In this document: positions 27,001 to 33,000 of the stretch, piece after piece
Numbering within the stretch: position 1 is the stretch's first letter
Layout: each line of letters starts with the position of its first letter
Position numbers: made by a program
Source: a virus
Taxonomy: Duplodnaviria; Heunggongvirae; Uroviricota; Caudoviricetes
Length of the DNA stretch: 38,930 nucleotides
Virus record (IMG/VR): IMGVR_UViG_2545824708_000026
Reading direction: 5' to 3' (one strand)

Positions 27001-30000
27001 TCCTGTTTTGGTCTAAGCTGCGGTTGCGTTCCTGAATGGTTACTACGATTGGTTTGGTTGGGTCTGGAAGGATTTGCTGTACTGCGTGAATAGCGTTTTG
27101 CTGATGTGCTGGAGATCGAATTTCAAAGGTTAGTTTTTTCATGACTTCCCTCTCCCCCAAATAAAAAGGCCTGCGATTACCAGCAGGCCTGTTATTAGCT
27201 CAGTAATGTAGATGGTCATCTTTTAACTCCATATACCGCCAATACCCGTTTCATCGCGGCACTCTGGCGACACTCCTTAAAAATCAGGTTCGTGCTCATC
27301 TTTCCTTCCCGTTCTTCCCTGGTAGCAAACCGGTAATACACCGTTCGCCAGACCTTACCTTCGATAACCAGAAGACCTGCCCGTGCCATTTTAGCCGCGG
27401 CCTGATTTATGCTGGTTACTGTTGCGCCTGTTAGCGCGGCAACGTCCGGCGCACAGAAGCTATTATGCGTCCCCAGGTAATGAATAATTGCCTCTTTGCC
27501 CGTCATACACTTGCTCCTTTCAGTCCGAACTTAGCTTTAATTTCTGCGATCTTCGCCAGAGCCTGTGCACGATTTAGAGGTCTACCGCCCATAACAGGAA
27601 GTTGTTTTACTGGTTCAGGTATCGTCTCACCACGGTTAATTCGCGCTGTCATACAGGTCAGTTCATCGGCAGCCTTGCGCCGTAATTCCGCATCAGTAAG
27701 CGCATTGGCCCGCATGTTCTGATACAGGTTGGTAACCAGCCAGTAGTGCGCGTTCGATTTCCACGGATAAGACTCCGCATCCGGATACAGGCCTCGCTTC
27801 CGGCAATACTCGTAAACCATATCAACCAGCTCGCTGACGTTTGGCAGTCCGGCGATAACGGATGCTTCTTCCCGGCACCATGCAACAAACTGCCCGGGTG
27901 ATGGCAGAAATGGTCGATTCTGCCGACGGGCTACGCGCATTCCTGCGTTAACCTGTTCCATTGTGGTGATCCCGTTTTCCCGGAAAGCCAGAACCCACTG
28001 GCGGCGGATTTCGTTCAGTTCGTTCTGGTCACGGTTAGCCAGACTCGCCGGGAAAGTTGCCAGTAACTGGCTGAACACACCGTTGATGATCTGCGCTACC
28101 TGCTGTACCTGTGGCTTTTCGTCGTACTGTTCCGGCATGTTGTTGGCGATCCGACGCATCTGCTCACGGTCAAAGTTAACCATCTGTGCGGCGATGTTTT
28201 TCATAGATCCACCCCGTAAATCCAGTCAGTGTTTGTCAGGTCGAGTTTTGGTTTGCTGGCTGTCACGACTGCCTGTTGCTTGTTACGGTTGATTTCGAGC
28301 TGGGTCCACTTGTCGCGGAGTTTGGCCGGGCTAAGCACGTTACCGGACCAGAAGTTGTCCTGGCATGCCCAGCGGAACAGTACACACATGTCGCGGTGGT
28401 TACGTCCGTCACGTTCACGCATCAGGCGGATATCGTTAGCCCACCCAGCAAAATTCGGTTTTCTGGCTGATGGCGCGATGGTCTTCACCATGTCAAACAT
28501 CCACTCTGCGGCGGTCAGGTCTTCTGCTGTTCCCCACTTACTGCCGCTCTGAATTGCAGCATCCGGTTTAACCACAGAAAGATCGTTTTCTGGCTGGTCA
28601 GAGGATTCGCCAGAATTCTCGGACGAATAATCTTTTCTTTTTTCTTTTGTAATAGTGTCTTTTGTGTCCCCCTGTTTTGAGGGATAGCAATCCCCCAATT
28701 TGAGGGATGTTTTATCCCTCGTTTTAGGGGATTTTCCCTCGTTTTGAGGGATACACCATTCTGAGATGTTTTTGTTTGGTCCAAACATGCCGCCTTGCTG
28801 CTTGATAATATTCATTCTGACGAGTTCTAACTTGGCTTCATTGCACCGTTTGACAGGTAACTTTGTAATCTCGCTAAGTTGAGAATCGGTGATTCTGTCC
28901 ATTGGTTTATTCCACCCATAGGTTTTACGCAGAATGGCAAGCAGCACTTTAAACTGTCGCTTGGTCAGATCTGCGCCCGAATAAGCCTCAAGCAGCATAT
29001 TTGATAGTCTGGCGTAACCATCATCGAGATCTGCCACATTACGCTCCTGTCCGGCAAAGTTACCTCTGCCGAAGTTGAGTATTTTTGCTGTATTTGTCAT
29101 AATGACTCCTGTGGATTGATCCAGTAATGACCTCAGAATTCCATCTGGATTTGTTCAGAACGCTCGGTTGCCGCCGGGCGTTTTTTCTTTGTGATTTCAT
29201 CAAGCGCATACTTAAAAGCCCTACTAATCGGACTGATGTCTGATGCCATTCCGAAAGCACACAAGACCGAAGCAATAAACCTCCAGTCTGTTCTGCTTAT
29301 CTTCGATTCATGACAGCCAATCATCTTTGCCAGACCGCGCTGGGTAAGCGTTGACAGGTTGATGAGTAAATCTGTTTCTGCGCGATCAACGTCGCGCTGT
29401 GATAGTTTGCTGTAACTTGTTTGTGTCATTTCTTACTATTCCCATAGGTAAATAATCACTAACACTCATCTTTCGATGAGTGCTTAATTAGTTACCGCGT
29501 TGTCGGCGGTGCAGATTGATAAAGAGCGGTGTTACTTATGCAGCCAGAAGGTTCTTTTTGCTTATTTCAAGCATTTCGCTTGCTTGATATTTGCCACCAG
29601 AAATCTCTTCGATTTTTGATGCGTATTTAGTTTTCCCAAAAAACTCAGTCTTAGGGAGGAAGCCGTTTTTGAGCCACTTATAGACAGCCCTTTCGCTAAC
29701 TCCACAAGCCTTCGCAACTTCAGGGATGCCGACACCTTTAATCGGCTCATCAAGATTTTGCATAGGAATACCCTTTTTCGTACTTTCAGTACGCATTATG
29801 ATTGAACTGAAAGTTTTTGCAAGTGCTTTAGTATCGTACTCATGGTTCAGAATGAAAAAGTGCGCAAAGAATTCGCCCAGCGGCTAGCGCAAGCCTGTAA
29901 AGAAGCTGGTCTTGATGAACATGGTAGGGGAATGGCCATAGCCCGTGCCCTTTCTCTTTCGTCCAAAGGCGTTAGCAAATGGTTTAATGCTGAGTCTTTA

Positions 30001-33000
30001 CCACGCCAGGAAAAAATGAATGCGCTTGCGAAATTTCTAAACGTTGATGTTGTTTGGCTTCAGCACGGCACTTCGTTAAATGGAGCGAATGATGAAGATA
30101 CTTTTTCAATTGTTGGCAAATTAAAAAAAGGGTTAGTGCGCGTGGTTGGTGAGGCAATTCTTGGTGTTGATGGTGCCATCGAGATGACCGAAGAGCGCGA
30201 TGGGTGGCTCAAGATTTATAGCGATGATCCAGATGCCTTTGGTCTTCGTGTAAAAGGAGACAGCATGTGGCCCAGAATTAAATCAGGAGAATATGTACTC
30301 ATTGAGCCTAACACCAAAGTATTCCCAGGTGATGAAGTGTTTGTCAGAACCATTGAAGGGCACAACATGATCAAGGTTCTTGGCTATGACAGAGACGGAG
30401 AATACCAATTTACAAGCATCAATCAAGACCACAGGCCAATAACGTTGCCTTATCATCAAGTAGCAAAGGTGGAGTATGTGGCTGGTATTTTGAAGCAATC
30501 TCGCCACCTAGATGACATCGAGGCAAGGGAATGGATTAAAAGTTCGTGACTTCATCGTCACATAGCTGGTAACCAATGGCCTGAAGAGACGTTTGGGTGA
30601 CAAGAAGCATAGGTATTAACAATAACTTTCATGGTGATACGAATCAGTGGCTAAAAAAGGCGACTTTAAGCCTACCCAGAAAGAGGTTGACCAAGCTATT
30701 ACTCGCTTGAAAAAAGTAACTTTTAGCGGAGTTTCGTGGACCGGAAGTGAGGGACGAACCCCAATCTGGTTTAAATTGGATCTCAAAGCTTTTGATGAAA
30801 TTGGCAACCCAATCACAGGCATAAGATTTATGCTTCACTGGCGTTCTCCTATCGTTGAAGGGGTGGATATAGTGAAGCTTTCATTTGTGATGTTTCTTCA
30901 TGACAGGCGCATTTACGCGCTTGACCCGTACCCTGCGCATAACAAGTCACACCGTAATAAATCTATAGTGCACCATCCAGATTTTGTTGAGGTGGCTCGA
31001 GGTCCTCACTATCACATGTACTTCGAATCAGCTGGGGAAGAAATTGCACTCAAGCTTGAAACGAACATCAAGCCAGATGATTTTTTTGGCTACTGGAATT
31101 ATTTTTGCGAGGCGCTTAATATCATATATGAAGGCAGCCCACCTTTACCGAATCAAGATAAATCAGGTCAGCTATCATGGGAAATGTAACGTGTTCAACA
31201 GTCATATCTAAGCTCGGGTTTGAATGCCACCCAATGAGCGACACGTTGCTGCGCGTTATTAGTCCCTTCACATACTACGATGATTGTGAGCAGATAAGCG
31301 TATTCGTTCAAGAGATGAGTGGTCAGTATAGGGTTACAGACTACTGCGATACATTGATGAATATTGAATCACGCGGCATCCACCTGACTAAAAAGAAAAT
31401 TGATCTGATCAGGTCATCACTCGCTTCGCAAGGAATTTCATTAAATGACTCTGGAGAGATATCTGCGTGGGCAGATGAGTCGTCCGTTGGACAGGTAACT
31501 GCAAATGTTATTCGTGGTGGGATTCTTGCATCCGCCCAAACTGCTGATTGGTATGCTGAGGTCAAAGACGATAAGTTCGAAAAATGTGTAATCAGTTACT
31601 TAAAATCAGCAGGGCTTGGGAAGCGACTAGCCTTAAAGGAAAAAGTGAAAGGTATTAGTGGGCATAACATTACTGTTCCGTTAACGCTAAGGAATGAGTC
31701 TCGACTAATACCACCAAAACGCGGGTTTACGGTAAGCCTTGCCAGCAGTAAAGGATGGAATACTGCCCACTCAACAGTTGGGAAGATTGTTGACTTAAGT
31801 CAGGTCGTTCCTGACATAAACAATAGATTTGTAATAGTTGACAGCGATGGGTTAACACCTGAGCTACAGCAACTATCACTACTATTTAATGATACCGCAC
31901 GAGTGTTGCCATTCCATACCAGAGACTCTTGGATTGACTCTCTGGTAGCCTAGAAAAACCCGGCCTCTGCGCCGGGTTTTCTTTACCTCACGTTCGCCTC
32001 CCCTATTTAACATCCGCATATGTGCTAACCCACGAACTAACACGCCAGCAATACAGTCCTTTCTCCCCTACAGACCAATCTTCAATCTTTGCAAAAATAA
32101 ATTTCATTACATATCAAAAACTTATCTAATAAAATTAAAGAGTTGCAAAATCTCGTACTTGCAGTTCTTGATAATATCGAACTATTAGTTCATTATTATC
32201 GCCGTCAGCAGGATGCTGGCAGCCAAACGGAACAGATTGGCAGGCTCTTTAACTTCGATGGGGCGCTGACAAAGCGCAAACAGATACCAAACGAGATGGA
32301 TTTGGCGGTGATGTGAATTGCAGCTGCAACGACAGCAACCAGAAGATCAGCATCTGGCACATCACCCCCAAAGCCATTTCACATGAGGAAAACATCATGA
32401 CGGTAATCGTGTACGGGAAATCAACATTTGCAGGAAATGCCAAAACTCGCCGTCATGAGCGGCGCAGAAAGCTGGCTATCGAGCGTGATGCTATATGCAA
32501 CATCATCGATTCGATCTTCGGCACAGACAGTGAGGAACCTGTTCAGGAAGCCCCGAGAAAACGTTTAAGCCTTTCTGAAAAAGCAATATCACTCGGAAGC
32601 CTTCGCTGCCAGAAGGCAGAAGAAGTCGAGCGTAAACAGAACCGTATTTACTACCGCAAGCCACGCAGTGAAATGGGTGTGACTTGCTCAGGCCGCCAGA
32701 AGCAACGCGGAAAATCAATTCCAGCTTATTACGATTGAGGTGAGCCATGCTCAAGAAAGTCAAACGCCGACTTTACAAAGAAGGTAGATATTCATGCCAG
32801 TTGCAAAAATGCGACACAACAAAATGGAGTGTCGATGATTGGTGTAACTGGATAGATAGATAGATACGGAACTTGGTGGGATAAATAACAGGTAACTTAA
32901 GCGTATTTACTTTCGCAGCAAACAACTTATTTGAGGTGATATATGGAAGAAGAATTTGAAGAGTTCGAAGAGCATCCTCAGGATGTGATGGAACAATACC

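Follow-up and report, generated by a model that had tools for sequence, protein, structure and literature searches.

An immunity region of the phage 933W type in a mosaic lambdoid E. coli prophage

We read the region described here as a 933W-type immunity module, or lysis/lysogeny switch, in an E. coli prophage of mosaic lambdoid make-up, and put the probability of this assignment at about 95%. The window, that is, the whole 38,930-nucleotide stretch of viral DNA analyzed, had been described in a sequence-only reading as containing a non-lambda cI/cro pair with three operators in OR and two in OL, over a range running from the first base of OR1 to the last base of OL1 (29779-32192). That description stands, and the OR sites, Cro and the DNA-binding domain of cI are those of 933W; what was missed is that this is a named and known immunity type. 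Because the sites are those of the well-studied switch of the Shiga-toxin phage 933W, the observation is correct but ordinary: a switch that is already known is found here in another E. coli prophage. Parts of the region have matches in 1168 of 5426 complete E. coli genomes, and the exact 2.9-kb arrangement is present in 23.

All five 15-bp sites read on the + strand exactly as first quoted, at the places first given for them (Table 1). Measured centre to centre, OR1 and OR2 are 24 bp apart, OR2 and OR3 32 bp, and OL2 and OL1 24 bp, the last agreeing with the OL spacing claimed from the sequence. The core ACT-N3-AGT is present in four of the five sites, that of OR3 being ACT-N3-GGT. In alignment, OR1, OR2 and OR3 match oR1-3 of NC_000924 at every base and are spaced as they are there (24 and 32 bp); that record annotates oR1, oR2, oR3, pR, pM and tM at homologous positions. 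The 933W site has been described as 15 bp long with rotational symmetry about the central base pair; in its five natural copies positions 4 and 5 (A and C) are invariant, position 6 is T or C, and position 2 is G save in one OR2 half-site, while OR1 is off consensus at positions 3, 3' and 7' (PMC3317979). The sites here fit all of these features, from the symmetry to the OR1 departures: A4 and C5 occur in 10 of 10 half-sites, G2 in 9 of 10 (the exception being one OR2 half-site with A in its place), and T occupies position 6 in nine half-sites, C in the remaining one. OR1 sits a little downstream of the PR -10, over the place where PR is expected to start, OR2 falls within the PR spacer, and the cI ATG (29842-29844) is inside OR3, the A of the ATG being the dyad-centre base, which bears out the proposed overlap of OR3 with the cI start.

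Table 1. Features of the immunity region and its surroundings, with positions in the window
Feature	Position	Strand	Description
cII	29133-29429	-	98 aa; Pfam Phage_CII, E 8e-34
nutR	29494-29528	-	boxA CGCTCTTTA and boxB hairpin ACCGC-CGACAAC-GCGGT, read directly
cro	29536-29763	-	75 aa; 75/75 identical to 933W Cro
OR1	29779-29793	.	CGTACTTTCAGTACG; perfect dyad bar the centre; exact dyad-pattern match; oR1 annotated in NC_000924
PR promoter (predicted)	29795-29822	-	TTGCAA -35 (29822-29817), 16-nt spacer, CATAAT -10 (29800-29795); scan 9/12
OR2	29803-29817	.	TGAACTGAAAGTTTT; one mismatch to dyad pattern; annotated oR2 of 933W
TAGTAT	29829-29834	+	-10-like hexamer of putative PRM; ends 7 nt before cI ATG
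OR3	29835-29849	.	CGTACTCATGGTTCA; exact dyad match; annotated oR3 of 933W
cI repressor	29842-30549	+	235 aa; N-terminal HTH and C-terminal S24 self-cleaving domain; Pfam HTH_3, Peptidase_S24
orf180, first cargo gene	30647-31189	+	phrog_2017 (annotated as of unknown function), E 9e-73
orf258, second cargo gene	31177-31953	+	Pfam DUF1828, E 2.6e-10; phrog_1960, E 6e-119
tM, intrinsic terminator (predicted)	31954-31984	+	GC stem 31959-31976, then TTTTCTTT; ends cI-cargo transcript
OL2	32154-32168	.	CGTACTTGCAGTTCT; promoter-distal, abuts PL -35; exact dyad match
PL promoter (predicted)	32168-32196	+	TTGATA -35, 17-nt spacer, CATTAT -10; scan 9/12
OL1	32178-32192	.	CGAACTATTAGTTCA; in PL spacer, reaching into -10; exact dyad match
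nutL boxB	32263-32277	+	GCGCTGACAAAGCGC; sole match in window
N antiterminator	32397-32738	+	113 aa; Pfam N_peptide, E 5e-26; arginine-rich motif GNAKTRRHERRRKLAIERD

The proteins of the switch point to the same phage. The repressor is identical to 933W cI at 231 of 235 residues, and because the differences are only at residues 88, 90, 171 and 232, residues 1-87 are identical. The recognition-helix residues S41, K42 and K46, whose roles in the 933W repressor have been described (PMC3317979), are present in cI and do not change in any of 9 variants of the DNA-binding domain, the lowest cI identity among them being 74%. Residues 80-120 of the translated cI contain no AG or CG, and L107-G108 is present; Koudelka et al. 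2004 reportedly place repressor cleavage at Leu-Gly. No solved structure matching cI by sequence was found. The mechanical ORF of cro opens at ATG 29796, but the likely start is ATG 29763 further downstream, which is preceded by an AAGGG Shine-Dalgarno (anti-SD duplex of -4.5 kcal/mol versus +0.9 for ATG 29796). A promoter scan put PR and PL exactly where the operators overlap them. PR is placed the same as the putative pR of the 933W record, and PL is conserved in alignment with 933W.

The maintenance promoter is less sharply drawn. The hexamer TAGTAT, which may act as the -10 of PRM, falls at the 3' end of a 28-bp element that the 933W record labels "pM putative maintenance promoter", and in 19 distinct related sequences its T1, A2 and T6 are unchanged, with no indels from OR2 to the ATG. 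Since TAGTAT is below the promoter-scan threshold, this putative PRM would be weak. No Shine-Dalgarno was found before cI: within 20 nt ahead of the ATG no anti-SD duplex is better than +0.6 kcal/mol, whereas cro, cII, O, P, N and bet have values of about -4 to -7 kcal/mol. Judged from the sequence, a leaderless cI mRNA, as the sequence-only reading suggested, would fit, with PRM starting at or next to the ATG. It is possible, though we consider it unlikely, that the sites are operators as described and that the cI mRNA nevertheless has a leader from an upstream PRM start, or is translated from another start codon. The 933W repressor mRNA is stated in a 2018 paper to contain a Shine-Dalgarno, citing Tyler et al. 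2004 (PMC5977221), a statement that favors a leader and that the lack of anti-SD complementarity in these 20 nt opposes. A start at the ATG would also give PRM an odd geometry for an activator, for with TAGTAT as the -10, OR2 would be centred near -32, over the would-be -35, compared with -42 in the lambda activation geometry. However, TAGTAT is the sole -10-like hexamer in the OR2-OR3 gap, and it stands 7 nt from the ATG in all 19 distinct relatives; the 933W record, moreover, sets the putative pM directly against oR3, and the published numbering of S41, K42 and K46 starts from the ATG at 29842.

At OL the correspondence with 933W is looser, the region 31959-32216 as a whole being 71% identical. 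Aligned with 933W, OL1 (CGAACTATTGGTTCA there) has one substitution, at position 6', and OL2 (CGTACCAATAGTTCT there) has four, at positions 6, 7, 8 and 7'; the contacted positions 1-5 are identical in both, and the differences are confined to positions 6-8. In the OL2 of this prophage the centre is G-C, position 6 is T and a central A-tract is lacking. In published binding work, C at position 6 binds >2.5-fold better than T, a G-C centre binds about 3-fold worse and a central A-tract >4-fold better, and OL2 is the second strongest natural 933W site (PMC3317979). Going by these preferences, the OL2 allele here would bind repressor more weakly than 933W OL2, because of its G-C centre, its T6 and its lack of an A-tract, and if affinity is lowered, control of PL could differ quantitatively from that in 933W. 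Nineteen natural OL alleles were found, of which this prophage carries one; it is a minority form (6 of 92 OL pairs found), linked to the orf180/orf258 cargo and to its N allele.

One might go further and suppose that the module is the same but the switch shifted, with OL2 noticeably weaker, PL held less tightly and prophage induction easier than in a 933W lysogen. The OL2 substitutions (position 6 C to T, centre A-T to G-C, and the changes at 7 and 7'), the published base preferences at position 6, centre and A-tract, the high rank of 933W OL2 among natural sites, and the rarity of an allele tied to cargo and N all lean this way. Yet the published effects come from symmetric changes in a consensus context, and context can cancel such effects, as the OR2 position 2 result indicates (PMC3317979). 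OL1, which sits inside the PL spacer, is altered at one tolerated position only, and positions 2-5 are intact in 4 of 4 OL half-sites. We consider a shift of this size rather unlikely.

The occurrence of the sites is not random. In the 38.9-kb window the bare 9-bp core ACTNNNNGT shows no enrichment (52 matches versus 53.8 expected), but the full dyad GWACYNNNRGTWC has four exact matches, all in OR/OL, against a shuffle mean of 0.29, and 0 of 100 shuffles reached four. When one mismatch is allowed OR2 joins them, together with five further matches that are scattered at chance level 4-15 kb off. At this threshold (<=1 mismatch to the dyad pattern) there is no sixth site near OL or OR, giving three sites in OR, two in OL and no OL3; 933W likewise is reported to have no OL3, and no OR1-OR2 cooperativity (PMC5977221). 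The OR triplet is identical in 74 of 83 related loci, and in the 19 distinct OR-region sequences drawn from these 83, variable columns number 7 of 45 in the operators, 19 of 41 in the spacers and 43 of 115 in the flanking coding sequence. That the repeats are chance palindromes, or relics of a dead prophage, that regulate nothing today is very improbable: the chance rate of the bare core and one E. coli genome with an IS3 family transposase annotated under its region match would suit it, but it is contradicted by the confinement of the full dyad to OR/OL, by the overlap of the sites with PR, PL and the cI start just as in 933W, by the intact ORFs of cI, cro, cII, N, O and P, and by the better conservation of the operators than of their surroundings.

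The sequence-only reading had also placed the switch in a lambda backbone, which is right for the early genes only. O, P, ren, Bet, Gam and Kil are lambda-like, and a lambda cIII thermoregulator RNA is at 33824-33882, but N and nut are P22-type and the virion and lysis genes are P22-like: 14004-33858 matches the P22-like Lederbergvirus phage E212, including portal, scaffold, capsid, terminase and lysis genes. The sole similarity of N to 933W N is a short match with 8 of 21 residues identical, and its arginine-rich motif, like the boxB hairpins of nutR and nutL, is P22-type. The N start (ATG 32397) is preceded by a GAGGA Shine-Dalgarno (-6.3 kcal/mol). nutR differs from the 933W nutR at the same position, and the nutL boxB is conserved in the 933W nutL region.

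Two cargo genes and a terminator occupy the interval between cI and OL. orf180 has a weak DUF6978 match, under the Pfam cut-off, and is overlapped by the start of orf258 over 13 nt. Neither the AlphaFold model of orf180, whose confidence is moderate to low (mean pLDDT 66.9), nor the model of orf258 (mean pLDDT 78.5) has a significant match among PDB folds. The order and adjacency of the pair fit PADLOC PDC-M24 A/B, a candidate defence system itself, with weak scores (orf180 versus PDC-M24A, E 1.5e-3; orf258 versus PDC-M24B, E 6e-7, over approximately the first 100 residues only). This uncharacterised pair sits behind repressor genes in several prophage types. The predicted terminator has a fold energy of -17.7 kcal/mol (z-score -3.5), and its counterpart in the alignment with 933W is the "tM putative terminator for pM transcript".

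By analogy, we infer that this prophage behaves as 933W does. A cI dimer would bind the five 15-bp dyad operators (consensus CGAACT-N3-AGTTCG). At OR1 and OR2 it would block PR, turning off cro and the rightward early genes, OR2 being placed in the PR spacer and OR1 over the expected PR start; at OL1 and OL2 it would block PL and turn off N and the leftward early genes. Repressor on OR2 would stimulate the weak PRM, whose transcript would carry cI and the two cargo genes up to tM, and OR3, centred on the cI start codon, would silence PRM once repressor rose only slightly further. Induction of the prophage would follow from RecA-stimulated self-cleavage by the S24 domain. Repressor binding, affinities, the lack of cooperativity and of OL3, and the activation and then repression of PRM are taken from published 933W work; the sites and their non-random occurrence, the identity of OR1-3, Cro and the cI domain, and the predicted promoter and terminator positions come from the present analysis.

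The closest known system is thus the Shiga toxin 2 phage 933W, with which the prophage shares identical OR1-3, spacing and Cro, a cI with 98% identity overall and no difference in the DNA-binding domain, a pair of OL sites spaced by 24 bp without an OL3, an OR3 over the cI start, and tM ahead of OL. It differs from 933W in the type of N and nutR, in its P22-like virion genes, and in the slot between cI and tM, which in 933W holds a DUF3024 protein, a RuvC-like protein, stk and a small ORF and here holds orf180 and orf258. Lambda-like phages with 933W immunity are represented by Escherichia phages Lambda_2E9, 1H12, ev087 and others (genus Jouyvirus). Their cro-OR-cI block is about 98% identical to that described here, with the three operators unchanged, their OL/PL is 89% identical, and they have the same O, P, ren and red genes; their cargo slot, however, is a single 300-aa hypothetical gene, and their late genes are lambda-like where those here are P22-like.

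Lambda itself has the same plan: a tripartite OR flanked by divergent cI and cro, an OL controlling N, a PRM that is self-activating and self-repressing (here per published 933W work), a cI start codon without a Shine-Dalgarno, and accessory genes co-transcribed with cI, at the rexAB position. Unlike those of lambda, the sites here are 15 rather than 17 bp long and unrelated in sequence, OL has two sites rather than three, the OR2-OR3 spacing is 32 bp, and the operators are shifted 10-20 bp downstream with respect to PR and PRM; 933W, furthermore, does without pairwise cooperativity and without a role for an OL-OR loop (PMC3317979, PMC5977221). Among relatives of known structure, the N-terminal domain of the 434 repressor is the one nearest to the 933W DNA-binding domain, and in both systems the central operator bases are read indirectly (PMC3317979), but the 434 operators are 14 bp long (ACAA-N6-TTGT) and the 434 repressor binds cooperatively.

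The five operators around the cI/cro pair of this prophage make up the immunity switch of the Shiga toxin 2 phage 933W (NC_000924), which is already known. A megablast of positions 29500-32400 against phage genomes returned many Stx-converting phages, and records in which Cro carries the annotation "Cro of bacteriophage BP-933W". The 933W record has annotations for oR1-3 (15 bp each), putative promoters pR and pM, the latter abutting oR3, a cI start codon within oR3, and a terminator, tM, ahead of N. In alignment, OR1, OR2 and OR3 are identical to oR1-3 of 933W, as are 75/75 residues of Cro and 231/235 of cI, an HTH_3 plus Peptidase_S24 protein whose changes, at residues 88, 90, 171 and 232 only, leave the DNA-binding domain unchanged. 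The 933W site has been described as 15 bp long and symmetric about a central base pair, with five natural copies that never vary at positions 4 and 5, carry T or C at position 6, and have G at position 2 in every half-site but one, in OR2; OR1 is the strongest, and is off consensus at positions 3, 3' and 7' (PMC3317979). It has also been reported that 933W has no OL3 and that cooperativity between OR1 and OR2 is absent (PMC5977221). The operators found here agree with the published description of the 933W sites, and this agreement, with the identity of the OR sites and Cro and the near-identity of cI, is what identifies the switch. The sequence-only reading had proposed operators of a non-lambda immunity; it read the core correctly and did not name the 933W type.

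Features of the immunity region and its surroundings (positions in the window)
Feature	Position	Strand	Sequence or remark
nutR	29494-29528	minus	boxB matches the P22-type motif of N
cro	29536-29763	minus	75 aa
OR1	29779-29793		CGTACTTTCAGTACG
PR	29822-29795	minus	TTGCAA-16-CATAAT; promoter scan
OR2	29803-29817		TGAACTGAAAGTTTT
OR3	29835-29849		CGTACTCATGGTTCA
cI	29842-30549	+	235 aa
orf180	30647-31189		phrog_2017 (function not assigned); Pfam DUF6978 weak, below cut-off
orf258	31177-31953		phrog_1960 (function not assigned); Pfam DUF1828
tM	31954-31984	+	strong hairpin and T-run, -17.7 kcal/mol; aligned with 933W tM
OL2	32154-32168		CGTACTTGCAGTTCT
PL	32168-32196		TTGATA-17-CATTAT; promoter scan
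OL1	32178-32192		CGAACTATTAGTTCA
nutL boxB	32263-32277	+
N	32397-32738	+
lambda cIII thermoregulator RNA	33824-33882	+	full-length match, 88.5 bits

All five 15-mers occur in the window where they had been placed, with centre-to-centre distances of 24 bp (OR1-OR2), 32 bp (OR2-OR3) and 24 bp (OL2-OL1). The reported overlap of the third OR site with the cI start codon was borne out: the ATG at 29842 lies inside OR3, with the dyad centred on its A. The bare core ACTNNNNGT is at chance level in the 38.9-kb window (52 matches, 53.8 expected), and so the full dyad, GWACYNNNRGTWC, was used as the statistic instead. It has four exact matches in 38.9 kb, all within the OR and OL control regions; shuffled sequence gave 0.29 on average, and never as many as four in 100 shuffles. 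Allowing up to one mismatch gained OR2 and five scattered matches in the window, as many as chance would give. Neither a sixth site nor an OL3 is therefore present.

OR2 lies within the spacer of PR, the promoter of cro, and OR1 lies over its expected start. OL1 falls within the spacer of PL, the promoter of N, and extends to its -10, while OL2 adjoins its -35. An alternative PL using TTGCAA (32143-32148) was set aside: it would need a 21-nt spacer, and the hexamer is absent in 933W. The cro start is most likely the ATG at 29763, which has a Shine-Dalgarno sequence, rather than the ATG further upstream at which the mechanical ORF starts. No lambda-type cII site (TTGC-N6-TTGC) turned up in the vicinity of cro or cII, and among solved structures there was no sequence relative of the cI protein. 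Two further symmetries were observed. A 31-bp near-palindrome at 32170-32200 (GATAATATCGAACTA-T-TAGTTCATTATTATC, 87% complementary) is centred on OL1 and puts a -10-like hexamer, GATAAT, on the minus strand as the mirror of the PL -10. The PR -35 (TTGCAA, 29817-29822, in the OR2-OR3 gap) is its own reverse complement and is central in a 20-bp imperfect palindrome (29810-29829).

For this prophage the identity with 933W is one of sequence; how the repressor binds and regulates is adopted from the 933W literature. By that analogy, repressor on OR1 and OR2 would silence PR, and on OL1 and OL2 it would silence PL; repressor bound at OR2 would stimulate PRM, the cI promoter, which would be limited as OR3 is filled at slightly higher repressor levels. 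Induction would follow S24 self-cleavage of cI.

The cI mRNA may be leaderless, with PRM starting at the ATG itself. TAGTAT (29829-29834), the putative pM of the 933W record, is the only -10-like hexamer of the OR2-OR3 gap, and its key positions and 7-nt distance to the cI ATG are invariant among 19 distinct relatives. A start at the ATG would, however, centre OR2 near -32, over the would-be -35, compared with -42 in lambda. The 20 nt upstream of the ATG are without anti-Shine-Dalgarno complementarity (+0.6 kcal/mol, versus about -4 to -7 kcal/mol for cro, cII, O, P, N and bet), yet a Shine-Dalgarno sequence has been stated to be present in the 933W repressor mRNA (PMC5977221, citing Tyler et al. 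2004). The accessible literature gave no decisive evidence on a mapped 5' end of 933W PRM or a leaderless cI. TTGCAA was also considered as the -35 of PRM and discarded, for it lacks a usable -10 downstream and would place the start within cI. The 933W identification is unaffected by the leaderless question.

In IMG/VR, 89 stretches matched the pattern of the OL pair. Adding 933W, Lambda_2E9 (a lambda-like Escherichia phage with 933W immunity) and the window gives 19 OL alleles, whose differences fall at positions 6-8 and in the spacer that separates the two sites. Because most of positions 1-6 were specified in the search for both sites, their conservation does not count as separate evidence. 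No such preselection applied to the OR region, and an identical OR triplet is seen in 74/83 loci. Across 19 distinct OR-region sequences, 7/45 columns vary in the operators, 19/41 in the spacers and 43/115 in flanking coding sequence. Residues S41, K42 and K46 of cI are unchanged in 9/9 variants of the DNA-binding domain, down to 74% cI identity. The distance from OR1 to OL2 ranges from 1643 to 3121 bp among loci, which marks the segment from cI to tM as a variable cargo slot. Separately, in the E. coli genome NZ_CP046259.1, one of 23 with the exact region, the match is split into two pieces spread over 4.2 kb, a stretch in which an IS3 family transposase is annotated, which suggests an IS insertion in that copy of the immunity region.

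Differences from 933W appear at OL. OL2 reads CGTACTTGCAGTTCT here and CGTACCAATAGTTCT in 933W, and at position 6' of OL1 the window has A where 933W has G. Published measurements give C at position 6 a more than 2.5-fold advantage over T, a G-C centre about 3-fold worse binding, and a central A-tract more than 4-fold better binding, all effects that depend on context (PMC3317979). From these base preferences, OL2 of the window is predicted to bind repressor more weakly than its 933W counterpart, and the allele may thereby loosen PL control, a second and smaller possibility beside the one raised below for the cargo genes. This OL allele occurs in 6/92 of the OL pairs found; the five IMG/VR loci that carry it encode cI, orf258 and N proteins all 100% identical to those of the window.

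Homology to 933W runs in two blocks (27144-30612, 94%, and 31959-32216, 71%), and the cargo genes between them differ from those of 933W. N has only a short 21-residue match to 933W N. Its arginine-rich motif is of the P22 N type. N and the nutL and nutR boxB elements are P22-type, whereas the flanking cro-OR-cI block is 933W-type, which places mosaic joints immediately beyond cro and immediately beyond PL. 933W shares the nutL boxB with the window but differs in N and nutR. Positions 14004-33858 match the P22-like Lederbergvirus E212 in portal, scaffold, capsid, terminase and lysis genes, and the match over the late region (~14000-27000) also covers Q and the nin genes. O, P, ren, bet, gam, kil and the cIII thermoregulator are lambda-like. 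The prophage thus combines a P22-like virion module, lambda-like early genes and 933W immunity, and the lambda backbone of the sequence-only reading holds for the early genes but not for the virion and lysis genes or N/nut. Adjacent phage-borne tRNA-Thr(tgt) and tRNA-Asn(gtt) genes lie within the prophage (22626-22781, minus strand). A tRNA-Arg(cct) near the left end of the window (1009-1083, plus strand) may mark the integration site or host flank, and an Rfam sRNA-Xcc1 match lies near the right end (38179-38267, plus strand; 69.3 bits, above the gathering score).

As discovery this is of little value, as GenBank has carried annotation of the switch ever since the 933W genome appeared, and its biochemistry has already been dissected (PMC3317979, PMC5977221 and earlier papers cited there). 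The immunity type of the prophage is now named, and homo-immunity with 933W-type Stx phages is predicted. The 933W module travels among lambda-like, P22-like and Stx phage backbones; its natural OL alleles are documented, varying only at weakly read central positions, and its variable cargo slot is flagged, here with an uncharacterised gene pair. There is nothing new in the operators themselves; what remains is the quantitative prediction for OL2 and the cargo pair.

That pair, orf180 and orf258, overlaps by 13 nt, ends at tM, and stands (30647-31953) in place of the 933W stk cassette. Their products give weak matches to the two components, A and B, of PDC-M24, a candidate system in PADLOC. 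At least four unrelated types of repressor gene have the pair downstream of them (933W type, ev207 cI, Yersinia lambdoid cI and a Klebsiella Rac-like short repressor). It keeps the same order in ev207 and related phages (proteins 40% and 51% identical) and in the Yersinia lambdoid and Klebsiella Rac-like prophages, and at all four types it directly follows the repressor except in the Yersinia loci, which have one extra gene between. A Pseudomonas phage has a DUF1828 homologue two genes downstream of a CI-like repressor. Homologues of the cargo proteins were found in Enterobacterales only, without names, and the cargo DNA had no near match among 50,697 phage records. The last 16 residues of orf180, spanning the junction with orf258, are almost invariant, and several histidines and aspartates are fully so. 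AlphaFold models (mean pLDDT 66.9 for orf180, 78.5 for orf258) matched no PDB fold at E <= 0.001; hints in orf258 of an N-terminal part like a type III secretion chaperone, and of Card1-like parts, were too weak to use. NCBIfam had no match for the pair, and the literature on DUF1828, DUF6978 and PDC-M24 yielded nothing functional and no reported function for either gene. Position and conservation suggest, tentatively and at somewhat less than even odds, a defence or superinfection-exclusion pair that would be expressed in the lysogen from PRM, on the model of lambda rexAB and 933W stk.
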